Positions 10,756-30,421 of a stretch of DNA of 64,000 bases are shown piece by piece. The stretch's first letter is position 1; each line of letters begins with the position of its first letter. The DNA comes from Caulobacter sp. (lineage in GTDB: Bacteria > Pseudomonadota > Alphaproteobacteria > Caulobacterales > Caulobacteraceae). The notes under the pieces were generated by a model. The model searched no databases, had not been told where the DNA came from, and worked only from the letters and a program-made list of their open reading frames with translations. Where the stretch lies: positions 6,082 to 70,081 of the forward strand of contig JAQGIK010000064.1 in NCBI GenBank assembly GCA_028291265.1, in the 5' to 3' direction. Made by a program: the position numbers and the translations under genes.

Positions 10756-10757
10756 CG

Positions 10758-12680: not shown

Positions 12681-12684
12681 AGCC

Positions 12685-15600: not shown

Positions 15601-16587
15601 AACGCCACCTGCATGGCCCTGCCGACCAACCAGCCGATCAACCCGCTGCGCAACACGCCGATGATGCAGCAGGAAAACCTCGAACAGCCCTTCCACCCCA
15701 TTTACCACTACGCCTTCGTCACCGACGCGAAGGAGGGGTTGATCGCGGTCAACGTCGACACGCTTGCCGACGGCGACCCACGCAACAACAAACTGAAGCG
15801 CGCGGTGACCTGGAACCCCGGCGGGGTGCTGAACGGGGCCCGCCACATCACCCTGGCCGGCCGCTATGCCTACATCGCCGCCACCTCGGGCCTCGTGGTC
15901 GTCGACCTCGACGATCCGCTCAAGCCTCGCCATGTGACCACCGTGCCGCTCGCCGACGTGCGGGCCAGCGCCGTGCAGTTCCGCTACCTGTTCGTCACCG
16001 ACCGCGAAGGGGTGCGGGTCCTGGACGTCACCCGTCTCGACCGCCCCGTGGTCATCCCCGGCGCCGTCGTGCCGCTGGCCGATGCGCGCCGCCTCTACGC
16101 CGCCCGCACCTACCTCTATGTGGCGGCCAAGGCCGAGGGCCTGGTCATCCTCGACATCGAGCGGCCCCGCGCGCCCCGCATCGCCCAGCGCATCACCTTC
16201 GACGGCCGGCTGAACGACGCCGAGGACGTGGTCATCGGCGCCACCAACGCCAGCCTGTTCGCCTACGTCGCCGACGGCCGCAATGGCCTGAAGGTCCTGC
16301 AGCTGACCAGCCCGGCCAGCCAGCCCAACTTCTACGGCTTCAGCCCCGCCCCGGTCCCCGAACTGATCGCCTGGGCGAAGACCAGGACGCCGGCCTTCGC
16401 TCTGTCCCGCGGCCTCGACCGCGACCGCGCCGTCGACGAGACCGGCAACCAGATGGCCGTCTTCGGCCGCCTGGGCTCGCGACCCTTCAACAGGAGCGAG
16501 ATGGAACGGCTGTTCCTCAACCCGCAGGGCGAGGTCTATCGGGTGACCGACACGCCCAGCATGGCCGACTGGCTGGCGGGCCGCTAA
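12685..16587 (+). CDS. 1300-aa exported decaheme cytochrome c with C-terminal LVIVD-type beta-propeller
   Basis: Signal peptide; ten CxxCH (CMSCH, CADCH, CGACH, CASCH, CMNCH, CADCH, CKDCH, CFTCH, CGGCH, CTDCH); about six Y(A/L/M)(Y/F)V...G(L/F/V)xVxD(V/I/L) repeats in the C-terminal third. Confidence 0.88.
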   Translation: MGRKGIKRWLLGALAIAASVLVVGGLTTASALARAEEEEMPVARTYVAAPPAKAGQAPAEAKAKSAGCMSCHSPVDSVSMHASEAVVIGCADCHGGDAGASLPAGTAKDSASYVAVRDRAHVLPRYPKAWGWPGSANPKRSYSLLNRESPAFIRFVNPGDYRVARQACGACHMGLIEANERSLMATGAMFYGGASYNNGVLPFKRYMVGESYTPDGETAKIVSPGKPAGTVTEAEARRGALPVLYPLPTWQVVPPGDVFRVFERGGRNIGTQFPEIGLPNPTGQTQRLEEAGRPDIRQSNRGPGTGLRIAVPVLNIHKTRLNDPYTWFLGTNDQPGDYRSSGCASCHVVYANDREPRHSLTYAQFGRDGQSQTADPTIDKAAPGHPLKHVFSRAIPTSQCMNCHMHQPNMFLNSFLGYTMWDYESDAPSMWPKKQKYPSDKDIRETNDRNPEGAAPKGLWGDLDFMREVYGLNKNLKDTQFADYHGHGWNIPGVLKRDRAGNLLDKDGKIVSPDDPEKWRRKGEGEFVQPGVNPGKTVHMMDIHAEKGMQCADCHFAQDSHGSGLIMGEVASAVEISCKDCHGNARKYPNLRTSGPAAPPGGADLMVLRNPDGQRRFEWLERDGRRVLMQRSIVDPKLEWEVSLVKDAVDPTSPTFNAKSARAKLMSKGVAGQKPFAFGSGVADKDLAHPEAEIACFTCHTSWTPSCGGCHLPIEANWKAESHKDKGGETRNFATYNPQVARDDMFQLGKHQLTRGGIIAPVRSSSALVLSSTNINRERIYVQQPPISAAGFSSQAFAPHFPHTVRTTETKTCTDCHVSAAEDNNAIMAQLLTLGTGTVNFVGMHAWVGAEGGFEAIRVTEWDEPQAVLGSYLQKYAYPDFYGMHVSKNRLQLMNWTRKARDGGVEEFANVRQGAGGDVRCLQLRGEYMYVAEGRGGFRVYDVASIGNKGVSERIVTAPFSGAGHDTQVASANATCMALPTNQPINPLRNTPMMQQENLEQPFHPIYHYAFVTDAKEGLIAVNVDTLADGDPRNNKLKRAVTWNPGGVLNGARHITLAGRYAYIAATSGLVVVDLDDPLKPRHVTTVPLADVRASAVQFRYLFVTDREGVRVLDVTRLDRPVVIPGAVVPLADARRLYAARTYLYVAAKAEGLVILDIERPRAPRIAQRITFDGRLNDAEDVVIGATNASLFAYVADGRNGLKVLQLTSPASQPNFYGFSPAPVPELIAWAKTRTPAFALSRGLDRDRAVDETGNQMAVFGRLGSRPFNRSEMERLFLNPQGEVYRVTDTPSMADWLAGR

Positions 16588-16976
16588 GGCTCGCGCGAGA
16601 TCGGGAACAGCGCCCGCAGTCTCGGATTGCGCAGCCACAGCCCGCCCCACATGAACAGGCCGAGATAGAGACTGAACAGCTCATGGCTGAACAGCGGATT
16701 GCCGACCCGCACCTGGGTCGCCATGGCCCCGCCCAGCAGTCCCATCATCAGCACCGCGCCGAGCACACTGGTGCGCGGGATCAGGTAGAGCACCAGGCAG
16801 GTCAGCTCGATGATGCCGATCAGCAGCACATAGCCCGGCGGCCAGCCGAGGCCGGTGAGGGTTTCGGCCGCCACCGGCAGATGCAGCAGCTTGGGCGCGA
16901 TGGATGCGCCGAGCATGAACAGGGCGAAGAGCCCGGTCAGCACGCGGCCGGTCCAGACCATTGCGGATGCGTTCAT
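16584..16976 (-). CDS. DoxX-family membrane protein
   Basis: 130 aa, four hydrophobic segments, IGIIEL...LYLIPRTSVLGAVL pattern typical of DoxX_2. Confidence 0.8.
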   Translation of the reverse strand: MNASAMVWTGRVLTGLFALFMLGASIAPKLLHLPVAAETLTGLGWPPGYVLLIGIIELTCLVLYLIPRTSVLGAVLMMGLLGGAMATQVRVGNPLFSHELFSLYLGLFMWGGLWLRNPRLRALFPISREP

Positions 16977-17156
16977 TTACGTCCCCTCCCGGGATTGTGG
17001 CCTTGGGCCCGTTGGCCCGCCTCTCTTCCAAGGACGGCCGCTGCCGGCCGTTCCCGACATGGCCCTGACAGTAATCGCCGTTCGCCGGCCCCGAAAGGCC
17101 CCGTCGCCTCGGCCTTCGGGATGGTCCATAAGGAGGCGTCGCCCGGAGCACCGCCC

Positions 17157-17327
17157 GTGAAATCGCCGCCTTCCAAGACCCGCCTGTCGGACCTCAAGGG
17201 CGGATCGGGCCCCGCCAAGAAGTTCGAACCGCCGACCCCGAAGGTCAGCCGCCTCAAGAAGGGCAAGGTGCTGACGCCGGCCGAGAAGGCGGCCTTCCTG
17301 GCCTCGAGACCCGACCTCAAGGGGTGA
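17157..17327 (+). CDS. Small basic hypothetical protein (56 aa; alternative ATG at 17121)
   Basis: GGAG 8 nt before GTG; GC-rich third positions; Lys/Pro-rich. No family recognised. Confidence 0.45.
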   Translation: MKSPPSKTRLSDLKGGSGPAKKFEPPTPKVSRLKKGKVLTPAEKAAFLASRPDLKG

Positions 17328-17337
17328 GGAAGCCCGA

Positions 17338-17793
17338 ATGGAGACCAACAAGGGTCAGTTCGCAGGTCGGATGATGCGTCCCATTTCCCTGGTCGTCGTC
17401 TCGCTGCTGGTCGGCTCGCCGCTTGCCGCCGGGCCGGCCGCCGCCACCGGCCTGTCCCATCCGGCGCGGGCGCCCAACGAGAAAGACGCCGCCGCGATTG
17501 TCGCCAGGCCGGTGTGGCTGCAGCGTCCGACCAAGGCACAGCTCGAAGCGGCCTACCCGCGTATGGCGCTTCGTCGAAACGTCTCCGGCCTGGCGGTTCT
17601 TTGGTGCAGCGTCCGTCCCGACGGCTGGCTGCGTGACTGTCGGGTCGTTTCCGAGACTTCAACCGGCTACGGCTTTGGCCAGGCCGCCATCGACGTCAGC
17701 CCCCGGTATCGGTTGGCCAGCAAGGACGCCCTTGGCCGTAGGGTCGCGGGCCGGTTCGTTCGCTTCAGCGTCGTCTTCCGGACTCCCGACTAA
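17338..17793 (+). CDS. TonB C-terminal domain protein
   Basis: Hydrophobic N-terminus, then AYPxxA...SGxAVLxCxVxPDGxLxDCxVVSE...GFGxAA, the alphaproteobacterial TonB_C pattern. Confidence 0.75.
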   Translation: METNKGQFAGRMMRPISLVVVSLLVGSPLAAGPAAATGLSHPARAPNEKDAAAIVARPVWLQRPTKAQLEAAYPRMALRRNVSGLAVLWCSVRPDGWLRDCRVVSETSTGYGFGQAAIDVSPRYRLASKDALGRRVAGRFVRFSVVFRTPD

Positions 17794-18659
17794 TGCCCGG
17801 CTGAGCCCTCGGCCCGCTCATGGGCCAGGTGCTTGAGGAACCCCTGCATCTTCACCGTATAGCGGGCCAGGATCTTGGCCCGGCCCTGTTCGTCGGTGTC
17901 GGTGTAGTGGCTGACCAGGGCCTTGCCGTTCCACCAGTGCAGGCCGATGCCGGGCGGGCCGGCGACGATCATCGGGCGGTCGTCGGGGTTGTCCAGGTTC
18001 ATCGGGTCAAGGTCGAGCACGACCTGCGGCTGGGTCGAGGGACAGACCCGCACGGTCGTCCCCCCGAACGCCGAGATGATCGGCCGGTGTACGTGGCCCG
18101 CCAGGATGGCGACGATGTTGTTGTGCCGGGCGACGATGGGCTCCAGCCGGGCGACCCAGGCCTCCGACGGGCCGATGGTCATCCACTCGATGCCGGTGTC
18201 GATGGGCGGGTGGTGCATGACCACCAGGGTCGGCCGGTCGGACTCGGCCAGCCGCTGTTCCAGCCAGGCGGCGCGGGGCTCGTCGAAGCCGCCGCCGTGA
18301 CGGCCGGTTTCGAGCGTGTCGAGCACCAGGATGCGCAGCGGCAGATTGTCGACGGCATACTGGTTGAAGCCGCCCGAGAAGGGGGCGTTCGGATAGACCT
18401 GGCGGAAGACGTCGCGGTTGTCGTGGTTGCCCATGCAGAACAGGACCGGCATGGCCAGCTTGTCGAGGATCTTCTTCAGCCGCTTGTAGCTGGGCAGGTC
18501 GCCGTGGTCGGTGAGATCGCCGGTGGCCAGCACCAGGTCGGGCCGCGGCGCCAGTTCGTTCAGCGTCTTGACCACCAGGCGCAGGCGCTTGGCGTTGTCC
18601 TCGAAGTCCCCGCCGGAGCCGAAGCCCAGGTGCAGGTCGGTGATCTGGGCGATCAGCAT
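17790..18659 (-). CDS. cpdA: Class III metallophosphoesterase (CpdA/GpdQ-like cyclic-nucleotide phosphodiesterase)
   Basis: Motifs DLH, GDLTD, GNHD, HHPP, GHVH; last gene of the cyclase operon. Substrate not proven. Confidence 0.8.
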   Translation of the reverse strand: MLIAQITDLHLGFGSGGDFEDNAKRLRLVVKTLNELAPRPDLVLATGDLTDHGDLPSYKRLKKILDKLAMPVLFCMGNHDNRDVFRQVYPNAPFSGGFNQYAVDNLPLRILVLDTLETGRHGGGFDEPRAAWLEQRLAESDRPTLVVMHHPPIDTGIEWMTIGPSEAWVARLEPIVARHNNIVAILAGHVHRPIISAFGGTTVRVCPSTQPQVVLDLDPMNLDNPDDRPMIVAGPPGIGLHWWNGKALVSHYTDTDEQGRAKILARYTVKMQGFLKHLAHERAEGSAGH

Positions 18660-18708: not shown

Positions 18709-20973
18709 TTACTTATCTTCCGCTTGATACACCCCGTCCCAGTCCGCCGCCGGCGGGCTCAAGCTGTATCGTGCGATACGTTCGGCGAAGAGTCCCGCCA
18801 GTTTTTCGATTCCGAACACAGCGCCCGCAGCTCTCACGCGAGTTAGGGCGGTTTGCGCCGCCGTCCACTGCTGTCCGCGATAGGCGGCCAGCATGTCGGC
18901 GAAGGCGGTTTTCATCGCCTGGAAATCCTTGTCGCCGGCCATCACCGGCCGCCCCAAAAGGGCGAAGATGCGCTCCGGGGTGTCTCGTCCGACCACCCGC
19001 ACCTGGTCGACTTCGAGCTGGGCGAACTCCGGGATTTCCCTGGCCAGGGTCTGGCCCATCAGGATCGGCACGCCATAGACTTTGGTCAGACCCTCCAGCC
19101 GCGAGGCCAGGTTCACGGCGTCGCCGATCAGGCTGTAGCTCAAGCGTTGGCGCGAGCCCATGTTGCCGACGCAGCAGCGGCCGGCGTTGAGGCCGATGCC
19201 GATGGCGATGTCGCCTGGCCAGGGACCAACCAGGCCGCTCTGGCGGGCGTTCATCTCCTTCATGGCGTCGATCATGTCGAGCGCCGCGTTGGCTGAGTTG
19301 CGGTACTGGTCCGGGTCGTCCAGCGGCGCGTTCCAGAAGGCCAGCACGGCGTCGCCGATGTATTTGTCGATGGTCGCCTTGCGGGCCAGCAGGGCCTCGG
19401 TCAGCGGGGTGAGCAGCTCGATCAGGAAACTGATCAGTTCCTGCGGGGCCATCTTCTCGCTGATCCGCGAGAAGCTGCGGATGTCGCTGAACAGGACGGT
19501 CATGTCCCGCTCCTCGCCGCCCAGTTCGAGCTGTCCCGGATCGCGGGCGATGCGCTCGACGAGCTCCGGCGAGAGGTACCGGTCGAAGGCGCGGCGGATG
19601 TAGGCCCGCGAACGCTCTTCCCGATAGAAGCTGAAGCTGGTGACCAGGGTGTAGACCAGGGCGATGGTCAGCACCGGCATGGTCGGCTCCAGCAGCAGGC
19701 CGTTGTAGCGGAACGAAACCCAGGAGGCGGCCATGGTGCCCGCCAGCGACAGAGCGGCGATCAACCCGCTGCGCAGCGCGCCCAAGGTTGGGGCGAGGAA
19801 GGCCAGGGCCAGGCCGAACAGCACCACCAGCACCCGCTCCAACCCCAGCGCCCAATCGGGCCGTGACAGGAACTTGCCGAGAATTATCTGTTCGGCGGCC
19901 TGGGCGTGGACGATCACCCCCAACTCGTTCGCATTCAGGGGGGTTGCGACCAGATCGCGCAGACCGACCGCGCCGGTCCCGACGAACACCAGCTTGCCCT
20001 CGAACTTTTGCCTTATCTCCTCGGGGCTGAGCTCGCCGGTCAGGATGCGCCAGGCCGGCACGATCCGTTCGGGGCGGTCGGCGGTGTAGTGCATCCACAG
20101 CTCGCCCCCCTGTGTGGTAGGCGCCTCGTACTGGCCGACCTTGACGGCGACTACCGCGACCTGGCCGCCGGAAAACTCGCCGCTGGCGTCGGCGCCCTTG
20201 ACCATGATGGCCCCGGCCCCCTGGGCCACGCGCAGGGCCTCCAGCGACAGGGACGGCACGATCCGTTCGCCGATGCGGGCGACCAAGGGCACGCTGCGGA
20301 TGACGCCGCCCCCCCGGTTCACCACATTGACGAAGCCGGCCCCCGCCGCCTTCTCGGCAATGGCTGGCAGGGTCGGGATGGCGCCGTTGAAGGCCGGTAA
20401 GGCGCTCATCGGCGGGGTGCCGACCGCCACCACCCCGGCTGGCTCGAACGGGCGCGCCTTGTTGGGGGTTTCTGTCATAAAATAGCTGGCCACGGTCGGG
20501 CCGTTGGCCATGGCTTGGCCGAACAGCAGGTCGTGGTCGGGTAGGGCCGCGATGTCGGCGTAGTCGCCCTTGGCCTGCGGGTTCTGCCGCAATAGCTCGG
20601 CGGCGCGCGAGGGGCTGGTGCGGTCGGGCTCGCTGAACACCACGTCGAAGGCGATAGCGGCGGCGCCGGAGTCGGTCAGGGCCTGGGTCAGGCGGGCGGT
20701 GTCGGTGCGCGGCCACGGCCACTGTCCAAGGCGCCGGATCGTCTCGTCGTCGATGTCGACCACGCGGACGTCGGCGTCTTCATACGGCCTCGGATAAAGA
20801 CGCTGATAGCTGTCGAACACCAGGTTGCCGAGGTTCGAAAGGACCGCCGGCTGCCATAGGTGGATCAAGGCAATGATCAGGGTGACCACCAGCCCCGGGG
20901 CGGCGGACTTCATGGTTTGGACCCAGCCGGCGCTCTGGCCTGCGCGGGGCTTGCGGGCCCTTTTCTCGCTCAT
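18709..20973 (-). CDS. CHASE2-domain class III adenylate cyclase
   Basis: N-terminal TM, CHASE2 (VVDIDD...GQWPWPR...FDVVFSEPDR), three TMs, catalytic LFSDIRSFS, DKYIGDA and YSLIGDAVNLASRLE. Confidence 0.93.
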   Translation of the reverse strand: MSEKRARKPRAGQSAGWVQTMKSAAPGLVVTLIIALIHLWQPAVLSNLGNLVFDSYQRLYPRPYEDADVRVVDIDDETIRRLGQWPWPRTDTARLTQALTDSGAAAIAFDVVFSEPDRTSPSRAAELLRQNPQAKGDYADIAALPDHDLLFGQAMANGPTVASYFMTETPNKARPFEPAGVVAVGTPPMSALPAFNGAIPTLPAIAEKAAGAGFVNVVNRGGGVIRSVPLVARIGERIVPSLSLEALRVAQGAGAIMVKGADASGEFSGGQVAVVAVKVGQYEAPTTQGGELWMHYTADRPERIVPAWRILTGELSPEEIRQKFEGKLVFVGTGAVGLRDLVATPLNANELGVIVHAQAAEQIILGKFLSRPDWALGLERVLVVLFGLALAFLAPTLGALRSGLIAALSLAGTMAASWVSFRYNGLLLEPTMPVLTIALVYTLVTSFSFYREERSRAYIRRAFDRYLSPELVERIARDPGQLELGGEERDMTVLFSDIRSFSRISEKMAPQELISFLIELLTPLTEALLARKATIDKYIGDAVLAFWNAPLDDPDQYRNSANAALDMIDAMKEMNARQSGLVGPWPGDIAIGIGLNAGRCCVGNMGSRQRLSYSLIGDAVNLASRLEGLTKVYGVPILMGQTLAREIPEFAQLEVDQVRVVGRDTPERIFALLGRPVMAGDKDFQAMKTAFADMLAAYRGQQWTAAQTALTRVRAAGAVFGIEKLAGLFAERIARYSLSPPAADWDGVYQAEDK

Positions 20974-22817
20974 TGCCCTGTCCCCCAGGTGATGGCGCGG
21001 CTTTGCACGGCGATGGCCTTGGACCCCTTTGCCGGCTCCTTGCGGGTCGGCCGGATCGGCGCGTGATAGCTGTGGCAGTCGGCGCAGTCGGCCCCGGCCG
21101 CCTGTTTGACCTTGGCCCGGTCGGCCCCGTGGCAGGACTGGCAGGTCGCGAGCCTGGGCAGCAGCAGGTCCTTGGCCGTCCCCGACTTGCCGGCGGCGTG
21201 GCAGGTCGCACAGGCCGGCTGGCCGTCGGGGCCTTTCGAATGTTCGGGGATGTCGTGGTTGAAGGTCCCCTCGGTCAGCCAGGCGTCGGCCAGCTTGACC
21301 GGCCCGGCTCGCCAGACCAGCGAGCCGTCCGTCGGCGGCGAGGCGCCGTGACAGCCGAAACAGGTCCCGCCCGGCGAGAACAGGCCACGGATACGCTGGG
21401 CGGCGCTGGCGGTGACGCCGCTGTAGACCTCCGGATCGCCGGGCCGCCGGCGGCCCATGGTCGGGCCGCTGCGGGAGACTACGCCGCCGCCCCCGGAGAA
21501 GAAGCTCACCAGTTTGCGGGTGTCGCCGTGCGGCAGGGCGCCAATCGAATGGCAGGCGCCGCAGGCCGCTTCCATCTTCACCGGCAGGTAGTTACCGCCC
21601 TTCGGTTCTTCCTTGTGGCAGCTCTGGCAGTCGAGCGGGGCGCCATAGCCGCGTCCCGCGCCCAACGAGATCGCCATGCGCGCCGGGCCGCCGGTGCGCG
21701 ACAGGTGCAGGTCGTGCGGGAAGATCAGGCCGCTGTTCTCGGACGGGTGGGCGGCCATGGAGATGCGGCGAACCTGCAGCGGCGAGGGCGAGACGGTGAC
21801 CAGGGGCGCCAAGTCCGGGTGGCGGCCCCAGTCGGCGACGTTGGCCAGCCTGGTGTCCTTCAGCCGGCGGTCGAGCCCGGCGTGACAGGCGGTGCAGCTG
21901 TGCGCCGTCTGCAGGGTCGGCTTGGCGTGGTCGGGATCGCCCAGCGGATCGCCGATGTGCTCGACGTGGCAGCTGGCGCAGCGCTGCTGCGGCTTGTTGA
22001 ACACCTTGCGGGCGTAGTCGAAGACCTGCTCACCCCAGCCGTCCGGGGCCGGCGTGCCCCAGACCAGACGGCGCAGCCCGGCGTGGTCGGCGACGGTGCG
22101 CAAGGGCTGGTCGGGCGCGCCCCTGGTCTTGAGGCGGGCGACGGTCGCCTGCAGTTGGGCGGGCGTCTGGCTGGCCGTGTGACAGCTCTGGCAGGCGTCG
22201 TCGCGCACGGCGACGAAAGCTTGCTGGTGACAGGCCTGGCAGTCGTTCTCGAGGAAGGCGTGGGTCTTCGACAGCGGGCCCGACGACCACTGGCTGTCGA
22301 GATCGATCTTCGGATGGCTGCCGAACACGCCATAGACGGCCAGCACCGGCAGGATCAGGCTGAGCACGGCGATCAGCAGGAAACCCGTCCAGGCGATCCG
22401 CCGCTTGCCCAGCACCTTGGCGCGGGGGATCAGGGTCGCCGGGGTGGCGACATCGCCCTGGCCGGGGGCGGCCTCGACGCGGCTCAGGGTCAGGATGACC
22501 TCATCGCCCTGGCCGGGGCCGATGGTCAGCAGGTGGTCGCCGAAGCTGAGCTCGGGGACGTCGCTGATCTTGACCACGGCGCTCTTGGTGAAGCGGCCGT
22601 CGACGCCGAACGGCTGGTCGCCCACCGCCTGGATGCGCAGGCGGCCGAGGCCCTCCTGGCTGAGAGTGGCGTGGTGGATGCTGACCGCCAGGTCGGGCAC
22701 ACGGATCTCGCAGTCGGCGCCCCGGCCGATGCGAAGAGGCCCTTCGGCATAGGTCTTCTTGCGGACGATCTCGCCGCCGGCGGCCCGTTTGGTGATCTGG
22801 CGAAGGGTGAAGCTCAT
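20970..22817 (-). CDS. FHA domain - TM - decaheme cytochrome c
   Basis: IGRG...VSIHHA FHA signature, one TM helix, ten CxxCH (CQACH, CQSCH, CASCH, CTACH, CQSCH, CGACH, CFGCH, CATCH, CQSCH, CADCH). Confidence 0.88.
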   Translation of the reverse strand: MSFTLRQITKRAAGGEIVRKKTYAEGPLRIGRGADCEIRVPDLAVSIHHATLSQEGLGRLRIQAVGDQPFGVDGRFTKSAVVKISDVPELSFGDHLLTIGPGQGDEVILTLSRVEAAPGQGDVATPATLIPRAKVLGKRRIAWTGFLLIAVLSLILPVLAVYGVFGSHPKIDLDSQWSSGPLSKTHAFLENDCQACHQQAFVAVRDDACQSCHTASQTPAQLQATVARLKTRGAPDQPLRTVADHAGLRRLVWGTPAPDGWGEQVFDYARKVFNKPQQRCASCHVEHIGDPLGDPDHAKPTLQTAHSCTACHAGLDRRLKDTRLANVADWGRHPDLAPLVTVSPSPLQVRRISMAAHPSENSGLIFPHDLHLSRTGGPARMAISLGAGRGYGAPLDCQSCHKEEPKGGNYLPVKMEAACGACHSIGALPHGDTRKLVSFFSGGGGVVSRSGPTMGRRRPGDPEVYSGVTASAAQRIRGLFSPGGTCFGCHGASPPTDGSLVWRAGPVKLADAWLTEGTFNHDIPEHSKGPDGQPACATCHAAGKSGTAKDLLLPRLATCQSCHGADRAKVKQAAGADCADCHSYHAPIRPTRKEPAKGSKAIAVQSRAITWGTGQ

Positions 22818-22824
22818 GCCCGCC

Positions 22825-23697
22825 TCACCAGTAGATGAAGACGCTGACGATGTGCGCGGTCAGCGCCATCAGCAGGGCGATGGAAGCGGGGACGTGAATA
22901 GCCAGCCAGGCCCCCAGCAGGGTGCGGATGCGCAGGTGCTTGCGCAGTTGCAAGAGGGCGGCGCTCTTGCGGTCGAGCAGGGCGGTGACGTTGCCGATGG
23001 CGGCCCGTTCGCTCTCGCTGGCCCGGCGGATGAGGCCCTTCAGCTTGCGCAGCGCCCGCCGGGTGCCGCAGTCCATCGGCCGGGTGCTCAGCCTGCGGAA
23101 GAAACCGCCGCCGACCTTGCTCTTCTCCAGCGACAGCCGCACCGCCGCCGCCTGGCGCTGGTTCAGCGGCTGGGCCGCGTCGTTGAGCTGGCGGTCGAGG
23201 CTGCGGATGGTCTCGACCATCTGCTTCTGGGTGGTCTCGCGGCGGTTGTTGCTGAGGGCCTTGGGCAGGCCGGCGTAGGCGATGATGCCGTAGACTCCCG
23301 ACAGCACGACGAGGATCATCAAGGCATAGGCGAGCGTATGGATGTTCCAGCCGAACTGCAGCCCGCTGTGCAGGGTGGCGATGGCGACCAGGGCGATGCC
23401 CAGATAGACGTGGGCCGAGACCCAGGCCTTCAGCGACCAGTCGCCCTTGGTGATCACCCGCTTGCGGATGCCCAGCGCCGTCAGCCAGACGATCAGCAGG
23501 GCGCCGATGGTCCCGAGCGTATAGCCGTACCAGCTGCCGCCATTGGGCCTGGGGTGCACATCGGCCAGCACATAGCCGACCGCCGCCGCGATGCTCAAGG
23601 CCAGTCCGACCCAGGCCCAGCGATAGCCGGCATGGCGCAGGAAGCCGACATGGACCTGGGCGTTCGACCGCTTTCCCTTGCGCGGCGCCCTGGCCAT
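22825..23697 (-). CDS. Integral membrane protein with two His-x13-His helices (di-heme b / ferric-reductase-like)
   Basis: About five TM segments; AHVYLGIALVAIATLH and IHVPASIALLMALTAH. 1-nt gap from the upstream gene. Confidence 0.7.
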   Translation of the reverse strand: MARAPRKGKRSNAQVHVGFLRHAGYRWAWVGLALSIAAAVGYVLADVHPRPNGGSWYGYTLGTIGALLIVWLTALGIRKRVITKGDWSLKAWVSAHVYLGIALVAIATLHSGLQFGWNIHTLAYALMILVVLSGVYGIIAYAGLPKALSNNRRETTQKQMVETIRSLDRQLNDAAQPLNQRQAAAVRLSLEKSKVGGGFFRRLSTRPMDCGTRRALRKLKGLIRRASESERAAIGNVTALLDRKSAALLQLRKHLRIRTLLGAWLAIHVPASIALLMALTAHIVSVFIYW

Positions 23698-23698
23698 C

Positions 23699-26146
23699 TC
23701 AGCTCTCGCCCCGCACGCGGGTGACGGTCAGGAAGTCCTCGGGCGAGACCCGGATCGCCGCCCCGGTCGGGCAGGCCCGCACGCAGGCCGGACCCCCGTC
23801 GATGCCGGCGCACATGTCGCATTTGATGGCGACCTTGGGCTTCTCGCCGTGCTTCTTCTTGGCCTTGGTCTTCCACTCGAGGTCCGGCTCGCCGGGCCCG
23901 GGTCCGGCCCCGAACAGGAACCAGCTCAGGAGGCCCGGCTTCTGCGGCGGCGGGCTGTCCATGCGGATCACTCCGTAAGGGCAGTTGCGCTGGCAGTTGC
24001 CGCAGCCGATGCAGGTCTCGTCGATGAACACCTCGCCGTCGGCCCCGCGCCGGATGGCGTTGGGCGGGCAGTCGGTCATGCAGTAGGGGTGCTCGCAGTG
24101 CCGGCAGCTGGTCGGCACATGCAGGTTGGCGTAGGTGCGGCCCGCCTCGCGGTCCAGTCGCGACAGCCCGTCATGAACGTCGGCGCAGGCCTTCTCGCAG
24201 TTGTCGCAGCCGACGCAGAGGGTCTCGTCGATCAGCAGCACGTCGGTGGCCTCGCCGATGCCCTGGTCGACCAGGAAGTCGGCCACGGAGCTGTAAAGAT
24301 CGACCACCCCGCTGAAGCGGTCCTTCTGCTCCTCGATGTAGCTGTTGATCTGTTTGCGGGACCGCATGTCCTCCCGCATCTTGGCTTCGAGTTCGGGCTT
24401 GCGGGCCAGCAGCCGCCGGAACAGATCGCCGTCCAGCCGCACCACTTCGGAGCGGATCGCCGCCCGCACCGTCGCCGTCCGTCGGCCGCCGTCGATCAGC
24501 GCCATCTCCCCGACATACGACCCGGCCGGGACATAGTTGAGGAACACCGTCTTGCCGCCGATCTCCTTTTCGATGGTCATCGAGCCGGAGCGGATGATGA
24601 AGATGTCGTAGCCTTCCTCACCCTCGTTGATGATGGCGTCCTCGGCCTTGACCTGCATGAGCTCGGCGCTGGTCAGCACCTCGACGATGTCTTCCTTGGT
24701 CAGGCCCGAGCCGAAGATCTGCAGCATCTGGCGTTCGGTGGTGATGCGGTTGACCGTCTCCCGCGCGTCCTTGTTCTGGGCCATCAGCCGCAGGCTGGCC
24801 GTGCGTGGCATCTCCAGCAGGATGCAGGGCTCGGCCGCACGGATCGTCGCCCCGCGGCGGCGGCCGGATATGAGGCCCACCTCGCCGAAGATGGAGCCCT
24901 GGCCGATCGGCACCGTCTCGCGCCGGTTCTTCGGATTGACCTCGACCTTCACGGAGCCGGCGGCGATGCCGAACATCGAGGAGCCGATGGAATTGCGCTG
25001 GAAGATGACCTCGTCCGGCGCGCAGACCCGCACCGAGGAATCGAGCAGGAACTCCCGCATCTGCAGGGTTGACAGGCCGTTGAGGATTTCGATCCGTGTG
25101 CGGAGGAATTCCAGCCACTCGGCCACCGACTGGCCGCCGGGCAGGGCCGCCAGCTTGGCCTCGAGGATCGGTTCGTCGGCGGGTTTCAGGCCGAGGTTGC
25201 CGGTGATGAACTCGATGACATCGTAGCCCTGGTTCATGCAGTGCTTGATCAGCGGATAGCCGGCCAGGGCCCCGATGACATAGATGCCGGGCGCGGTGGT
25301 TTCGAAGGTCGGCGACAGGCGCGGAAAGGCGTCGCGGTCCGCGCTCGTGAAGGCCACGCCCATGGCCTCGACGAACTTGCGCGGCGGGGCCGAGCCCATG
25401 CGGGCGATGATCCGGTCACAGCGGATCGACTGCTGCCCTTCCGGTGTGTCGATGGTGATGAAGCCGGGGTCGACCCGGGCCGGACTGGAGCCCGCCAGGA
25501 TGGTGATCCGGCCGGCCGCCGCCGCGTCGGTCAGGGCCTTGACGTTGGCCTCCTTGGCGCGCGCGAAATCCATCGACTTGTTGAGCAGGGTGACGGTGTT
25601 GCCCTGGGCCTGGTCGGCGATCAGGCCCAGCGCGTTCTCGATGCCGGCGTCGCCGCCGCCGACCACGACGATGTGCTCGTCGACGTACTCGGTCGGGTCG
25701 TCGAGCGTGTACTGGATGTGCTTCAGGTCGCTGCCCGGCACGGTCATGACGTTGGGGTTGCCCTGGGTGCCGATGGCCAGCACCACGGTCTCGGCCTTCA
25801 GCACCCGGCCGTCGGTCAGGGTGATGGTGAAGTCGCCGCGCGATCCGGCGACGGAGGCGGCCTCGGCCCTGTAGGCGACATTGACCTTGTGGCCGCCCGT
25901 CTCGCTGTTCCAGCGGTCGAGGATGGTCTCGCGCTTGCCGGCCTCGAAACCGATGTCCGAGCGCAGCACCAGCTGCGTCGGGGTGGCCATGATGTGCTTG
26001 CCGCGCTGGTAGCGGAAGATGGTGTCGGAGAGGCGGTCGGTCTTCTCCAGCAGGACGTGACTCATCCCCCGGCGGGCGGCGCGCGCGGCGGCGCTGAGGC
26101 CGGCCGGCCCCGAGCCCAGGATCGCAACCCTGTAGACTCCCTCCAT
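23699..26146 (-). CDS. Fusion: FAD/NAD(P)-dependent oxidoreductase (TrxB/YpdA-like) + two cNMP-binding domains + 4x[4Fe-4S] ferredoxin (815 aa)
   Basis: Start MEGVYRVAILGSGPAG at 26146; second Rossmann motif VVGGGDAG; FGEVGLISGRRRGATIRA and VGEMALIDGGRRTATVRA; 16 Cys in four DmsB/NrfC-like cluster motifs. Confidence 0.9.
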   Translation of the reverse strand: MEGVYRVAILGSGPAGLSAAARAARRGMSHVLLEKTDRLSDTIFRYQRGKHIMATPTQLVLRSDIGFEAGKRETILDRWNSETGGHKVNVAYRAEAASVAGSRGDFTITLTDGRVLKAETVVLAIGTQGNPNVMTVPGSDLKHIQYTLDDPTEYVDEHIVVVGGGDAGIENALGLIADQAQGNTVTLLNKSMDFARAKEANVKALTDAAAAGRITILAGSSPARVDPGFITIDTPEGQQSIRCDRIIARMGSAPPRKFVEAMGVAFTSADRDAFPRLSPTFETTAPGIYVIGALAGYPLIKHCMNQGYDVIEFITGNLGLKPADEPILEAKLAALPGGQSVAEWLEFLRTRIEILNGLSTLQMREFLLDSSVRVCAPDEVIFQRNSIGSSMFGIAAGSVKVEVNPKNRRETVPIGQGSIFGEVGLISGRRRGATIRAAEPCILLEMPRTASLRLMAQNKDARETVNRITTERQMLQIFGSGLTKEDIVEVLTSAELMQVKAEDAIINEGEEGYDIFIIRSGSMTIEKEIGGKTVFLNYVPAGSYVGEMALIDGGRRTATVRAAIRSEVVRLDGDLFRRLLARKPELEAKMREDMRSRKQINSYIEEQKDRFSGVVDLYSSVADFLVDQGIGEATDVLLIDETLCVGCDNCEKACADVHDGLSRLDREAGRTYANLHVPTSCRHCEHPYCMTDCPPNAIRRGADGEVFIDETCIGCGNCQRNCPYGVIRMDSPPPQKPGLLSWFLFGAGPGPGEPDLEWKTKAKKKHGEKPKVAIKCDMCAGIDGGPACVRACPTGAAIRVSPEDFLTVTRVRGES

Positions 26147-26278: not shown

Positions 26279-28255
26279 ATGAGCGCCGAAATCGGCCAGT
26301 TCGCCCTGATCCTCGCCTTCGTGCTGGCGCTGGTTCAATCCGTGGTGACGATGTGGGGCGCCCACCGTCGCGATGACGCCCTGATGGCGCTCGGCCGCAT
26401 GGCCACGCTGCTGCAGCTTTTCTTCGTGGTCATCGCCTTCGGGGCCATCGCCTGGGGCTATGCGACGCTCGACTTTTCGGTCGAGCTGGTCGCCCGCCAC
26501 AGCCACACGACCCAGCCGCTCGCCTACCGCCTGGCCGCCACCTGGGGCAGCCATGAGGGCTCGATGGTGCTGTGGATCCTGATCCTGGCGCTGCACGGTG
26601 GGGCCTTGGCCGTGTTCGGCCGCCCCCTGCGGACGACCTTCCTGTCGCGGGTGCTCGGCATCCAGGGCCTGCTCGGCGCCGCCTTCCTCGGCTTTTCGCT
26701 GTTCACGTCCAATCCCTTCCTGCGTCTATCGCCCGCGCCACTCGAAGGGACCGAGCTCAATCCGCTGCTGCAGGACCCCGGCCTGATCAGCCACCCGCCG
26801 CTGCTCTACCTCGGCTACGTCGGCTTCAGCGTCGCCTTCGCCTTCGCCCTCGCCGCCCTGATCGAGGGCCGGGTCGACGCCGCCTGGGCGAGATGGGTGC
26901 GGCCCTGGGTGCTGTTCGCCTGGACGTCCCTGACCGTCGGTATCGCGCTCGGCAGTCACTGGGCCTACTACGAGTTGGGCTGGGGCGGCTGGTGGTTCTG
27001 GGATCCGGTCGAGAACGCCTCCCTGATGCCCTGGCTGATGGGCACCGCCCTGCTGCACAGCGCCCTGGTGCTGGAAAAGCGCGGGGCCCTGATCAGCTGG
27101 ACCCTGCTGCTTTCTATCCTCACCTTCTCGCTCAGCCTGATCGGCACCTTCCTGGTCCGCTCGGGCATCCTCAACAGCGTCCACGCCTTCGCCGTCGACA
27201 GCGCCCGCGGCGCCTATGTCCTGGCCTTCTGCGTGTTGGCGACGGGCTCGGCCCTGGCCCTCTACGCCTGGCGGGCCCCGGCCATGCGCACCGGCGCCGT
27301 CTTTGGTCCCATCTCCAGGGAGGCCGGGATCACGCTCAACAACCTGGTGCTGGTGGTGGCCACGGCGACCGTCTTCCTCGGCACCTTCTATCCGCTGCTC
27401 TACCCGCTGATCAGCAATGGCGGCACCATCACCGTCGGCCCGCCCTTCTTCAACCTGATCTTCCTGCCGTTGTTCGCCATCCTCCTGACCCTGGTCGGCT
27501 TCGGCCCTCTGCTGCATTGGAAGCGGGATGCGGTGAAGGCCATCCTCGTCCGCCTGCGCTGGCCGCTCGGCCTGTTCGTCATCGCGCTGCTGGTCGGGAC
27601 CTTCGCCTTCGGCCTCGGCAAGACCCTGGCCGCCTTCGGCATCGCGCTGGGCGTCTGGCTGATCGCCGCCGGCGGCCTCCTGCTCGTGCGCCGCTGGGGC
27701 CTGGGCTCGAAGAGCGCCGCCGCCAACTGGAGCCTGGTCCGCACCACGCCGGTCGCCATCTGGGCCGTGGCCCTGGCCCACACGGGCCTCGGCGTCACCT
27801 GCGTTGGGGTCACCGCCATGGGCGGGTTCGAGGCCAGCAAGGTGCTGCGCATGGGCCCCGGCGACCAGGTCGAGTTCGCCGGCCGCACCGTCATCCTCGA
27901 CAGCCTCGGCGAGGTCGCCGGCCCCAACTACCAGGCCGACCGCGGGGTCTTCCGCATCGTCGGCGGGCGCGGCCCCAGACAGCTGATCTCCGAGCGCCGC
28001 TTCTACCCCTCCAGCCAGAGCCAGACCATCGAGGCGGCCATCGGGCCGTCGCTGGTCGGCAATCTCTACATCTCGGTCGGTGAGCGCGACCAGGCCGGCA
28101 AGGCCGTCATCCGGATGTGGAACCACCCCTTCGTCGGCTGGATCTGGGGCGGCGCCATCCTGATGGCGCTCGGCGGCCTCATTTCGCTCAGCGACCGCCG
28201 CCTGCGCCTCGGCGCCCCCCAGCCGTCCCGCAAGACCGTCGAGGCCGCCGCATGA
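26279..28255 (+). CDS. ccmF: Cytochrome c heme lyase CcmF/NrfE
   Basis: WGGWWFWDPVENASL (WWD domain), WGSHEGS, HPPLLYLGY, SVHAFA. Confidence 0.96.
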   Translation: MSAEIGQFALILAFVLALVQSVVTMWGAHRRDDALMALGRMATLLQLFFVVIAFGAIAWGYATLDFSVELVARHSHTTQPLAYRLAATWGSHEGSMVLWILILALHGGALAVFGRPLRTTFLSRVLGIQGLLGAAFLGFSLFTSNPFLRLSPAPLEGTELNPLLQDPGLISHPPLLYLGYVGFSVAFAFALAALIEGRVDAAWARWVRPWVLFAWTSLTVGIALGSHWAYYELGWGGWWFWDPVENASLMPWLMGTALLHSALVLEKRGALISWTLLLSILTFSLSLIGTFLVRSGILNSVHAFAVDSARGAYVLAFCVLATGSALALYAWRAPAMRTGAVFGPISREAGITLNNLVLVVATATVFLGTFYPLLYPLISNGGTITVGPPFFNLIFLPLFAILLTLVGFGPLLHWKRDAVKAILVRLRWPLGLFVIALLVGTFAFGLGKTLAAFGIALGVWLIAAGGLLLVRRWGLGSKSAAANWSLVRTTPVAIWAVALAHTGLGVTCVGVTAMGGFEASKVLRMGPGDQVEFAGRTVILDSLGEVAGPNYQADRGVFRIVGGRGPRQLISERRFYPSSQSQTIEAAIGPSLVGNLYISVGERDQAGKAVIRMWNHPFVGWIWGGAILMALGGLISLSDRRLRLGAPQPSRKTVEAAA

Positions 28256-28791
28256 GGCGCCTGGCCTTCATCGTCCCGGTCATCGTCTTCCTCGGCATCG
28301 CCGCCGTGCTGGCCGTCGGCCTCGGTCGCGATCCGAAAATCCTGCCCTCGATGCTGATCGGCAAGCCGTTGCCGACCTTCAACCTGCCCGACGTCCGCGC
28401 CGGCACGGGCGGCCGGGGCCTCGCCTCAGCCGACTTCCACGGCAAACCCGGCCTGATCAACGTCTTCGCCAGCTGGTGTGTCTCCTGCCGCATCGAGCAC
28501 CCCTTCCTGATGCGTCTCAAGGCCGAGGGCGTCTCGATCCACGGCCTCAACTGGAAGGACAAGGGCGACGCCGGAGCCCGCTGGCTGACCCGGTTCGGCG
28601 ACCCCTACGACCGCGTCGGCTACGACCCGACGGGCCGCACCGGCATCAACCTCGGCGTCACCGGCGCCCCCGAGACCTTCGTCATCGATAGCAAGGGCGT
28701 GGTCCGCTACCGCTACGTCGGCCCGATCACGCCGGAGGTCTGGGCCACCACCCTGAAACCCCTGCTCGACAAGCTGGAGGCCGAAGCATGA
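28252..28791 (+). CDS. ccmG: Thiol:disulfide interchange protein CcmG/DsbE
   Basis: N-terminal anchor, NVFASWCVSC, LGVTGAPETFVID; ATG overlaps the ccmF stop. Confidence 0.93.
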   Translation: MRRLAFIVPVIVFLGIAAVLAVGLGRDPKILPSMLIGKPLPTFNLPDVRAGTGGRGLASADFHGKPGLINVFASWCVSCRIEHPFLMRLKAEGVSIHGLNWKDKGDAGARWLTRFGDPYDRVGYDPTGRTGINLGVTGAPETFVIDSKGVVRYRYVGPITPEVWATTLKPLLDKLEAEA

Positions 28792-29246
28792 AGCGTCTCC
28801 TCGCCCTCGTCCTCGCCTTGACCGTCGTCGCCGGCCCGGCCCTCGCGGTCCTGCCCGAAGAACAGCTCAAGGACCCGGTTCTCGAGGCCCGCGCCCGCCA
28901 TCTCAGCAAGGAACTGCGCTGCGTCGTCTGCCAGAACCAGACCATCGACGACAGCGACGCCCCCCTGGCCGCCGACCTGCGCGCTATCCTGCGCGAGCGG
29001 CTGGTGGCCGGCGACAGCGACAAGCAGGCCAAGGCCTATCTGGTCCAGCGCTACGGCGACTTCGTGCTGCTGAAACCGCCGATCAATCCCGCCACCCTGT
29101 TCCTCTGGTTCGGCCCGGCCCTGCTGCTGCTCGGCGGCGGCTTTGGCGTCTGGCGCTACTGGCGCGGCCGGTCGGTCGCCGCCCCGGCCCCGCTCGACCC
29201 CGAAGAACAGGCCCGGCTCAAAGCCCTGCTGAGCGAGACATCATGA
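28788..29246 (+). CDS. ccmH: Cytochrome c biogenesis protein CcmH/CycL
   Basis: LRCVVCQNQTIDDS motif and YGDFVLLKPP. Confidence 0.95.
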   Translation: MKRLLALVLALTVVAGPALAVLPEEQLKDPVLEARARHLSKELRCVVCQNQTIDDSDAPLAADLRAILRERLVAGDSDKQAKAYLVQRYGDFVLLKPPINPATLFLWFGPALLLLGGGFGVWRYWRGRSVAAPAPLDPEEQARLKALLSETS

Positions 29247-30421
29247 TCCTCTGGATGGTCCTCACCCTGCTGGTCGCCCTGGCCGTGGTCGGCCTAGTCA
29301 TCCCCCTGACCCGGCCGCGCAAGAGCGTCGACGCCGCCGCCACCCCGACCGGCATCCTCGCCGACCAGCTGACCGAGCTCGACGCCCAGGCCGCCGCCGG
29401 GACCGTCACCGCCGACGAGGCCGCCCGGCTCAGGCTGGAGATCGAGCGCCGCATGCTGGCCGAGGCCAAGGGCCCCGAAGCCCCCGCCCGTCCGTTGAGT
29501 GAAAAGGCCCTGCTGGGCCTGGCCCTCGGCCTGGCCGTCGTCGTCGCGCTCGGCGCCACCGGCCTCTACGCGGTGATGGGCAAACCCGACATTCTGTCCG
29601 CCAACGCCCAGGCCGCCGGCCCGCCGGGTTCGGCCAGCTTGGCCGCCAACCACCCCGGCGGCGACGTGCCCGCCATGATCGCCCAGCTCAAGGCCCAGGT
29701 GGAGCGCAACCCGTCCGACCCGGAAGGCTGGCGGATGCTCGGCTGGTCCTACTTCCAGAGCGGCCAGTTCGACGAGTCCGCCGCCGCCTACGACAAGGCT
29801 GCGACCAACGATCCGACCAACCCCGAGCACCGCTCGGCCCAGGGCGAGTCCCTCGTCCAGGCCGCCGGCGGCCAGATGACCCCGGCCTCCTCCGCCGCCT
29901 TCCGTCAGGCCCTCAAGCTCGACCCGAACGACCCCCGCGCCCGCTACTTCCTGGCCGTCGAGAAGGACCAGGCCGGCGACCAGGACGGGGCCATGGCCGA
30001 CTGGATCGCCCTGATCAATTCGGCCCCGGAGGGCGCCCCCTGGGTCGGCGAGGTCCGCAACTTCGTCGAGGACCTGGCCCGCGAACGCGGCCTCGACCTG
30101 ACCGGCAAGCTGAAACCCGTCAGCGGCGGCGGCGGCCCGCGCGGCCCCAGCGCGGACGACGTCGCGGTCGCCCAGAAGATGACCCCCGACGACCAGCAGC
30201 AGATGATCCGCGGCATGGTCGAGGGCCTCGAAGGCCGTCTGCAGGAACAGCCCCGCGACGCCGAAGGCTGGATCCGCCTGATGCGCGCCCGCATGGTGCT
30301 GGGCGAACCGGCGGCCGCCTCCCGGGCGCTGAAACAAGGCCGGGCGGCGTTCGCCGACTCCCCGTCCGACCAGGCGCGGATCAGCGAGGCGGCGAAGGGG
30401 CTGAAGGTGCCGGGGGCCTAA
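29243..30421 (+). CDS. ccmI: Cytochrome c biogenesis protein CcmI/CycH (TPR)
   Basis: Two N-terminal TMs, leucine-zipper-like loop, TPR-like periplasmic region; follows ccmH. Confidence 0.9.
   Translation: MILWMVLTLLVALAVVGLVIPLTRPRKSVDAAATPTGILADQLTELDAQAAAGTVTADEAARLRLEIERRMLAEAKGPEAPARPLSEKALLGLALGLAVVVALGATGLYAVMGKPDILSANAQAAGPPGSASLAANHPGGDVPAMIAQLKAQVERNPSDPEGWRMLGWSYFQSGQFDESAAAYDKAATNDPTNPEHRSAQGESLVQAAGGQMTPASSAAFRQALKLDPNDPRARYFLAVEKDQAGDQDGAMADWIALINSAPEGAPWVGEVRNFVEDLARERGLDLTGKLKPVSGGGGPRGPSADDVAVAQKMTPDDQQQMIRGMVEGLEGRLQEQPRDAEGWIRLMRARMVLGEPAAASRALKQGRAAFADSPSDQARISEAAKGLKVPGA

Follow-up and report, generated by a model that had tools for sequence, protein, structure and literature searches.

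A flavo-iron-sulfur protein with paired cyclic-nucleotide-binding domains as a candidate cAMP-controlled entry subunit of a trans-envelope haem conduit in Caulobacter

Introduction

Two gene clusters described in recent preprints come closest to the system analysed here, which lies in a 64,000-nucleotide stretch of Caulobacter sp. DNA (contig JAQGIK010000064.1, positions 6,082 to 70,081; hereafter the window) and centres on the gene for an 815-residue protein, P0001, that joins a flavin module, two cyclic nucleotide monophosphate (cNMP)-binding domains and a four-cluster iron-sulfur (Fe-S) domain. The first, ptdABCDEFG, was named with its function given as unknown and a porin-cytochrome conduit suspected (bioRxiv 10.1101/2023.11.21.568154); its PtdE, PtdF and PtdG genes encode, consecutively, a cNMP-binding Fe-S protein, a 'ferric reductase-like' transmembrane (TM) protein and a decahaem cytochrome, and next to them are encoded a pentahaem cytochrome and a porin. 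The second, the NHC cluster of Ferrigenium straubiae, showed expression in every condition examined, and inward electron flow to quinone has been proposed for it (bioRxiv 10.64898/2026.01.22.701106, section 6.3.2); here a [4Fe-4S] protein, a five-TM (5-TM) protein and an FHA-anchored multihaem cytochrome stand side by side. By the published descriptions, the genes for a cNMP/Fe-S protein, a 5-TM protein and a multihaem cytochrome adjoin one another in both clusters as they do in the window. We refer to the genes for the flavoprotein, the 5-TM protein and the FHA-cytochrome as the triad.

The window locus also differs from each of these clusters. PtdE has been described with two 4Fe-4S clusters, and neither a flavin module nor cNMP gating is mentioned for it (bioRxiv 10.1101/2023.11.21.568154). 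The ptd clusters are marine and contain PtdC and PtdD, both absent at the window locus, which, unlike ptd, has genes for an HbpS-like protein, a 1300-residue multihaem/LVIVD protein, an adenylate cyclase and a phosphodiesterase. None of the PtdE accessions listed in Table S7 of that preprint, such as SMF72598 and CTQ45789, is among the family cluster members that we looked up; the likeness to PtdE rests on descriptions. The Ferrigenium cytochrome is nonahaem, compared with decahaem here, no cyclase or phosphodiesterase is described beside it, and the preprint does not note cNMP domains, a flavin module or the four TM-protein His residues discussed below.

The individual modules have characterised counterparts. 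Ferredoxin-NADP+ reductases (FNRs) of the thioredoxin reductase (TrxR) type pass single electrons from NAD(P)H and flavin adenine dinucleotide (FAD) to an Fe-S protein, and HycB of formate hydrogenlyase is a four-cluster electron wire. Cyclic nucleotides in bacteria are known to act mainly via transcription factors, together with a few enzymes and channels; mycobacterial Pat (Rv0998/MSMEG_5458) is a cyclic AMP (cAMP)-activated acetyltransferase in which a cNMP domain allosterically switches the fused enzyme. At the membrane, the Tmc, Hmc and DsrMKJOP complexes of sulfate reducers link cytoplasm and periplasm via Fe-S proteins, cytochrome b and multihaem cytochrome c. The earlier note on this DNA, made from the letters and their translations, knew of no characterised cAMP-gated flavo-iron-sulfur protein. 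Our literature searches agree, having found no characterised cNMP-switched flavo-Fe-S electron-transfer enzyme; the gene family itself has been noticed in the two preprints.

Here we propose that P0001 is the subunit by which NAD(P)H electrons would enter a haem conduit that crosses the envelope independently of quinone, and that cAMP would control it, a reading that we hold with modest confidence and that the evidence leans towards. P0001 makes most sense as part of a membrane conduit, not as an enzyme that stands alone.

Results

P0001 is a four-module protein of a widespread family

The open reading frame at 23699–26146 on the minus strand translates without a stop into 815 residues; homologues share the same initiating Met, and the open frame continues farther upstream. 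The earlier note had read this gene as a four-module fusion with the cNMP domains lying between the flavin and the four-cluster domains. Pfam and motif analysis bear out both the modules and their order, with Pyr_redox_3/2 at residues 5–307, two cNMP_binding matches and Fer4 families at residues 637–806. The protein and its modules are as follows.

23699..26146, minus strand: 815-residue flavo-cNMP-FeS protein (P0001), gene 1 of the operon
25226..26134, minus strand: FAD/NAD(P)H two-Rossmann module, residues 5–307 (Pfam, YpdA alignment, Foldseek, invariant motif residues)
24737..25069, minus strand: cNMP-binding domain A, residues ~360–470, phosphate-binding cassette FGEVGLISGRRRGATIRA at residues 420–437 (Pfam, structure match, conservation)
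24347..24697, minus strand: cNMP-binding domain B, residues ~484–600, phosphate-binding cassette VGEMALIDGGRRTATVRA at residues 545–562 (Pfam, structure match, conservation)
23729..24238, minus strand: HycB/DmsB-type four-[4Fe-4S] domain, residues 637–806 (Pfam, match to HycB 7z0s_B, Cys conservation)

Matches to solved structures divide the chain in the same way, the N-terminal module pairing with YpdA/Bdr, residues 378–582 with the tandem cNMP domains of PKA RI-alpha, and the C-terminal domain with HycB. A Foldseek search of the P0001 model against the PDB matched the flavin module alone, and no solved chain covered more than ~40% of the protein.

The architecture is neither a chance event nor an assembly artefact, because more than 5500 proteins in a 5.8-billion-protein set and at least 536 loci in a scan of one genome per species carry it. 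In a library clustered at 50% identity, ~45 full-length clusters share 28–66% identity and the same module order. The best 80 of the at least 536 loci are all from Caulobacterales and Sphingomonadales, and the source names of family members extend to Xanthomonadales, Nevskia, Fontimonas, Rhodospirillaceae and Nitrospira. Carriers that can be cultivated include Brevundimonas denitrificans NBRC 110107, Rhizorhapis suberifaciens DSM 7465, Sphingomonas laterariae LNB2 and Phenylobacterium kunshanense BUT-10. Member annotations are all generic, for example 'cyclic nucleotide-binding domain-containing protein' or 'thioredoxin reductase'. Variants of the architecture occur, among them P0172, in which an additional ferredoxin separates the flavin module from the cNMP domains, P0136, whose degenerate cNMP domains contain large insertions, and P0272, a form of 1458 residues.

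The flavin module lacks the cysteines of disulfide reductases

The flavin module carries the motifs GSGPAG and GGGDAG..E, in which G11, G13, P14 and G16 of the FAD motif and G165, D166 and E170 of GxGD...E are invariant across 40 cluster representatives. YpdA/Bdr (7a7b, 7apr) is its best match in both sequence and fold, over residues 7–296: Foldseek ranks YpdA first, with TMt 0.85–0.86 (7a7b_A: rmsd 3.3, 324 columns), and YpdA TIGR04018 is the best NCBIfam match of P0001, at 128 bits, below the cut-off of 339.9. P0001 has Ala where the YpdA motif GGGPCG has its Cys (Cys14 in S. aureus YpdA), and each of the 44 aligned family sequences carries A, S or G there. Caulobacterales and Sphingomonadales are not known to produce bacillithiol. 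Against the low-Mr thioredoxin reductase family (TIGR01292), P0001 scores 50.9 bits, compared with a cut-off of 343, and has no CxxC, which places it outside that family; the earlier note's remark that no TrxB-type CxxC is visible in the flavin domain holds, the sole Cys there being Cys243 and Cys302. A YpdA/TrxB-type disulfide reductase identity was rejected, because the defining Cys residues are missing.

Next after YpdA in the Foldseek ranking, at TMt ~0.6, come the CxxC-less TrxR-type FNRs, with which P0001 shares the TrxR fold, the absence of CxxC and the GxGxxG/A motifs for FAD and NAD(P)H. B. subtilis YumC (3lzw), the Chlorobaculum FNR (3ab1) and B. cereus FNR1/2 all have this two-Rossmann TrxR fold without CxxC. 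Whereas those enzymes use a separate small ferredoxin and have no regulatory domain, P0001 carries a fused four-cluster acceptor beyond two cNMP domains.

Sixteen invariant cysteines mark a putative four-cluster electron wire

The closest solved structure to the Fe-S domain is HycB (7z0s_B, E 7e-22, residues 637–810). Its 16 Cys lie in four motifs (CxxCxxCxxxC, CxxCx4CxxxCP, CxxCxxCxxxCP and CxxCx8CxxxCP), reproducing the I-II-III-IV pattern of the HycB/DmsB/NrfC-type four-cluster ferredoxins, and all 16 are invariant in the 40 cluster representatives, down to 28% identity. Weak NCBIfam matches to HmcB/DsrO were also found.

Between Cys motifs III and IV lies a conserved hydrophobic, Gly/Pro-rich loop, PGLLSWFLFGAGPGPG (residues 737–752, window 23894–23941), which is a candidate site for docking to the membrane or to a partner protein. 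PSORTb placed PtdE at the 'cytoplasmic membrane' (bioRxiv 10.1101/2023.11.21.568154).

Both cyclic-nucleotide-binding cassettes are canonical

Pfam cNMP_binding (PF00027) matches P0001 in two stretches, at 117.9 bits against a cut-off of 27.5. As the earlier note had claimed for Gly-Glu and Arg, both phosphate-binding cassettes, FGEVGLISGRRRGATIRA and VGEMALIDGGRRTATVRA, are canonical, each with Gly-Glu and Arg-x-Ala-Thr. Among 147 relatives of 46–84% identity, the cassette residues G421, E422, R429, R431, A433 and T434 of domain A and G546, E547, R556, A558 and T559 of domain B are invariant or at least 90% conserved. Domains A and B align as one unit with PKA RI-alpha and with PKG, whose regulatory parts have the same tandem A/B arrangement, and P0001 also matches the Pat-related NCBIfam model NF058543. 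What would be regulated sets P0001 apart from PKA, PKG and Pat, namely the transfer of electrons within a flavo-Fe-S enzyme.

AlphaFold2 run with the 147-sequence alignment gave a model with a mean predicted local distance difference test score (pLDDT) of 81 and a pTM of 0.67 (a single-sequence run gave pLDDT 36), in which the flavin module and both cNMP domains are the confident parts. Past domain B the model places helices at residues 573–582, 584–606 and 614–627, leading to the Fe-S domain from about residue 636. Movement of a C-terminal helix is the usual output of characterised cNMP domains (CRP, PKA-R, Epac), which makes it reasonable that the modelled C-terminal helices could act as a lever on the Fe-S domain.

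The flavoprotein gene is syntenic with membrane and cytochrome genes

P0001 is encoded by the first of five minus-strand genes with spacings of 1, 7, -4 and 49 nucleotides, and no terminator-like site was found on the coding strand of this operon. The remaining genes are listed below.

22825..23697, minus strand: 290-residue 5-TM protein, predicted di-haem cytochrome b, starting 1 nucleotide past the flavoprotein stop
20970..22817, minus strand: 615-residue decahaem cytochrome c with a cytoplasmic N-terminal FHA domain, a TM helix at residues 146–164 and ten periplasmic CxxCH motifs
18709..20973, minus strand: 754-residue CHASE2 and class IIIb adenylate cyclase protein, its start overlapping the cytochrome stop by 4 nucleotides
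17790..18659, minus strand: 289-residue CpdA/SpdA-like metallophosphoesterase (cyclic-nucleotide phosphodiesterase), gene 5 of the operon

Among the best 80 of the at least 536 loci, the triad is syntenic in all 73 that have enough DNA to judge, and it is kept even beside relatives of merely 28–47% identity. Of 69 loci, 63 have a phosphodiesterase homologue, which in 42 lies immediately 3' of the cytochrome gene, and an orthologue of the CHASE2-cyclase occurs in 14 of the 80. On a Nitrospira-type contig (L111), the gene set that the window divides between this operon and a convergent one forms a single co-directional cluster of seven genes, in the order c554-like pentahaem cytochrome, flavoprotein, 5-TM protein, FHA-multihaem cytochrome, HbpS-like protein, 739-residue protein and 1304-residue multihaem/LVIVD protein.

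A physical association is supported by gene fusions. In the metagenomic protein P0128, and in three species that belong to a single genus, the frame of the flavoprotein reads on into that of the 5-TM protein (open frames of 1120–1146 residues), and in P0140 two FHA domains are fused at the flavoprotein N-terminus. One genome, G001 (C34:52544-54940, locus L103), has two copies of the flavoprotein gene, one within a triad and the other solitary, with a class III cyclase gene 4 kb upstream.

The 5-TM protein has four His residues, His96 and His110 in TM3 and His268 and His282 in TM5, each pair spaced H-x13-H, and all four are invariant in 18–19 homologues, down to 25% identity. Its family gives sub-threshold matches to cytochrome b561 (14 of 18), DUF4405 and Ferric_reduct, the last reaching E 0.032 and 14.7 bits for the window protein against a cut-off of 28, and 4e-4 for the best family member. 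The four invariant His residues and these weak matches together predict a di-haem cytochrome b. A profile of the 5-TM family against PDB sequences returned nothing significant, and no quinone-site family was detected in the protein.

A cyclase and a phosphodiesterase accompany canonical pockets

The earlier note had proposed cNMP control from the binding domains alone; the cyclic-nucleotide link is strongly supported by the cyclase and phosphodiesterase in the operon, by their standing in the genome and by co-occurrence among genomes. The cyclase domain is nearest to P. aeruginosa CyaB and Spirulina CyaC. Its specificity residues, a Lys in DKYIGD and a Ser where class IIIb CyaB and CyaC have Thr, fit the established rules for the adenylate type, so its product, judged from these residues, should be cAMP.

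A whole-genome search for class III cyclases found exactly one in the window's genome (G000, 94% complete), namely that of the operon. A single-contig, 100%-complete genome of the same genus (G499) likewise has one class III cyclase, 4 kb downstream of an orthologue of the flavoprotein that is 96% identical. G000 yielded ten cNMP-domain hits: two are the domains of P0001, and the remainder fall in six Crp/Fnr regulators and two fusion proteins, one with patatin and one TrxR-like. Gly-Glu and Arg-x-Ala-Thr/Ser do not occur together in any of these eight proteins, which leaves the two pockets of P0001 as the sole canonical ones. The patatin phospholipase fusion (577 residues; G000:C1:35572-35826, L113:112-1842) has the cassette GEMALVGGTAHTAR, in which His replaces the phosphate-binding Arg; the other fusion is a 564-residue flavoenzyme (G000:C31:3813-4067, L114:1366-3057) whose cNMP fold, at the N-terminus, contains a degenerate cassette and whose C-terminal part is a Pyr_redox_2 (TrxR-like) module.

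In an even sample of 151 Caulobacteraceae genomes (12 carriers of the flavoprotein gene and 139 non-carriers), a class III cyclase was found in 11 of 12 carriers compared with 27 of 139 non-carriers (Fisher p=7e-7, on counts not corrected for phylogeny). Counting strong cyclase hits only, the figures are 11 of 12 and 14 of 139 (p=3e-9), and the sole carrier without a cyclase is an assembly of 75% completeness. On contigs long enough to show it, the cyclase gene usually lies 4–26 kb from the flavoprotein gene, as it also does in Sphingomonadales with a single cyclase. Carriers are scattered across seven genera, which fits transfer of the genes as an island.

The start of the window's cyclase gene and the stop of the cytochrome gene overlap as ATGA (window 20970–20973). 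This overlap means that the CHASE2 sensor, which faces the periplasm, could be produced stoichiometrically with the periplasmic decahaem protein, and it raises the idea that CHASE2 senses the state of that protein.

Discussion

A proposed electron path and its control

In the path that we propose, NAD(P)H would reduce FAD, and electrons would pass along the four [4Fe-4S] clusters to the two b haems predicted in the 5-TM protein, from there to the ten c haems of the FHA-anchored periplasmic cytochrome and then, probably, to the pentahaem, putative barrel and 1300-residue multihaem proteins of the convergent operon. The tandem PKA-R-like domains would bind cAMP, which the CHASE2 cyclase would make and the phosphodiesterase remove, and binding would shift the geometry or the docking of the Fe-S domain. 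A second messenger would thus switch electron export at the enzyme and not via transcription. Cofactor content, direction of flow, cAMP binding and the effect of gating are what we infer here. Outward flow is favoured because low-potential donors lie inside the cell and the membrane potential helps electrons to leave; an uncontrolled leak would waste reductant and membrane potential, which would provide a rationale for tight control.

A stronger version of this proposal, which we put forward tentatively and as falling short of an even chance, is that of a self-contained circuit. Here the sole class III cyclase would write cAMP, the CpdA-like enzyme would erase it and the only receptor would be a respiratory-type enzyme, so that cAMP opens a quinone-independent 'export valve' leading through four Fe-S clusters, two b haems and at least ten c haems to the cell surface. 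The window offers a clean test case for such a circuit, because writer, eraser and reader share one operon and the genome apparently has no other class III cyclase or canonical cNMP receptor.

The proposed chain resembles NADPH oxidase, the ferric reductases and the MsrQ-Fre pair, in which electrons from cytoplasmic NAD(P)H pass through a flavin and two bis-His b haems to an outside acceptor; the membrane partner here has its His pairs in TM3 and TM5 and weak matches to Ferric_reduct and cytochrome b561. In contrast to NADPH oxidase and MsrQ-Fre, the flavin module here is TrxR-type and not FNR-type, an Fe-S wire and a decahaem cytochrome are interposed, and the membrane protein reaches no Pfam cut-off. 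With Ferric_reduct below its cut-off and this type of flavin module, the proteins fall outside the NOX/ferric-reductase-domain family, and the likeness is one of working alike, not of membership. Tmc, Hmc and DsrMKJOP are similarly built, with an Fe-S protein on the cytoplasmic side, cytochrome b in the membrane and a multihaem cytochrome c in the periplasm; they differ in having an HdrD-like cytoplasmic subunit and unrelated membrane subunits, and in lacking both an NAD(P)H flavin module and a second-messenger domain.

Several observations weigh against the cAMP-controlled conduit. Thermodynamic reasoning is the sole basis for outward flow, and the helices that join domain B to the Fe-S domain, where a lever would act, are of low confidence (pLDDT 58–68). 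The cyclase gene is not adjacent to the triad in most Sphingomonadales, and the count of one cyclase in the window's genome comes from a search that covered class III alone in an incomplete assembly. No characterised member was found in the literature, and the two preprints on the triad assign it no function. Finally, a distant clade with degenerate cassettes (P0175, P0179, P0184, P0186, P0194 and P0166) retains all four modules and has the triad in three of the four loci examined.

Alternative readings

Across a distant group that includes this clade (P0142, P0145, P0148, P0166, P0175, P0179, P0184, P0186 and P0194) both cassettes are degenerate and the structural Gly residues are kept; family-wide, across the 40 representatives, invariance in the cNMP domains is limited to such Gly residues. 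As these clades keep the architecture, the cNMP folds also have a ligand-independent role, and gating is therefore neither universal nor the only role of the domains. Loss of the cassettes coincides with loss of the cytochrome FHA domain in three of three loci, which we treat as a single weak observation; the three loci are probably one lineage. At the P0166 locus the flavoprotein stands without its partners, and no cNMP enzymes were found near the triad in the degenerate-cassette loci examined. The idea that these genomes have no cyclases was refuted: cyclases are present, and physical linkage alone is missing.

These clades bear on the alternative in which P0001 is the same conduit subunit and its cNMP folds are a structural spacer or dimerisation module, or bind another ligand, with the cyclase and phosphodiesterase acting via other receptors, for example in transcription. 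The six Crp/Fnr regulators and two other cNMP-domain enzymes of G000 would be available for such a role, and the Gly-only invariance across the family fits it as well. However, relatives of at least 46% identity keep Gly-Glu and Arg-x-Ala-Thr in both domains, either invariantly or with conservation of 90% or more, no other cNMP-domain protein of G000 has a canonical cassette, and the cyclase and phosphodiesterase genes are physically linked to the flavoprotein gene across genera. We consider a purely structural or differently liganded role unlikely, although it is the main rival reading.

An inward conduit, in which periplasmic or extracellular donors would feed haems and Fe-S clusters and finally NAD(P)+ or the quinone pool, is the direction that the Ferrigenium preprint proposes for a homologous cluster, from Fe(II) oxidases (bioRxiv 10.64898/2026.01.22.701106), and each cofactor of the chain is reversible in principle. 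Transfer to low-potential [4Fe-4S] clusters, FAD and NAD(P)+ would, on bioenergetic grounds, run uphill and against the membrane potential, and the 5-TM protein gave no match to a quinone-site family. Moreover, the hosts are Caulobacterales and Sphingomonadales, generally aerobic heterotrophs, and we regard inward flow as improbable at this locus.

The triad might instead serve mainly in signalling, reporting the redox state of the periplasm to the cytoplasm or the reverse and integrating cAMP with phospho-Thr through the FHA domain. It would then make sense that cNMP and FHA signalling domains are built into redox subunits and that translational coupling ties a sensor cyclase to the cytochrome gene. 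Pfam, however, recognises no output domain (kinase, DNA-binding or GGDEF) in the triad, and the presence of 20 or more haems, of what looks like an outer-membrane module and of a dedicated set of ccmFGHI genes suggests a real flow of electrons, so that we find this role quite improbable. A soluble YpdA/TrxB-type disulfide or low-molecular-weight-thiol reductase with extra domains, to which the best single-family matches (TIGR04018 and the YpdA structures) would point, is very improbable given a score far under the family cut-off, Ala in place of the YpdA Cys, the lack of CxxC, the invariance of all 16 cluster Cys and the obligate synteny of its gene with those for the membrane and haem partners.

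If the cAMP-controlled conduit is correct, Alpha- and Gammaproteobacteria, for the most part aerobic and numbering in the hundreds, and Nitrospira-type relatives would own a second-messenger-controlled, quinone-bypassing route by which to discard or deliver reductant across the envelope. This would bear on redox balancing and extracellular electron transfer in organisms not considered electroactive, and on the unexplained 'ptd' and 'NHC' clusters of oxygen-deficient-zone and Fe(II)-oxidising bacteria. The stronger, self-contained circuit would in addition be the functional counterpart, in bacteria, of NADPH oxidase, assembled from unrelated parts, and the first direct cyclic-nucleotide gating of an electron-transfer chain.

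Genes surrounding the operon

Upstream of the operon and divergent from it lies a ccmF-ccmG-ccmH-ccmI set (window 26279–30421, plus strand); most Caulobacterales loci have a ccmF homologue at the corresponding place, unlike most Sphingomonadales loci. The convergent operon (window 7436–17793, plus strand) encodes the c554-like pentahaem cytochrome, the HbpS-like protein, a 640-residue protein, the 1300-residue multihaem/LVIVD protein, a 214-residue protein and a TonB_C protein. The 640- and 214-residue proteins have no Pfam match, and the former may be an outer-membrane barrel. Together, the pentahaem, HbpS-like, barrel-candidate and multihaem/LVIVD proteins are probably the outer half of the conduit.

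In the degenerate-cassette loci L081, L083, L107 and L108, the flavoprotein gene lies beside genes of the YceI/PSD/PSCyt type and genes for HXXSHH (PF07586) and DUF1501 proteins. At L107, a gene for a response-regulator-EAL protein, a c-di-GMP phosphodiesterase, stands directly 3' of the cytochrome gene.

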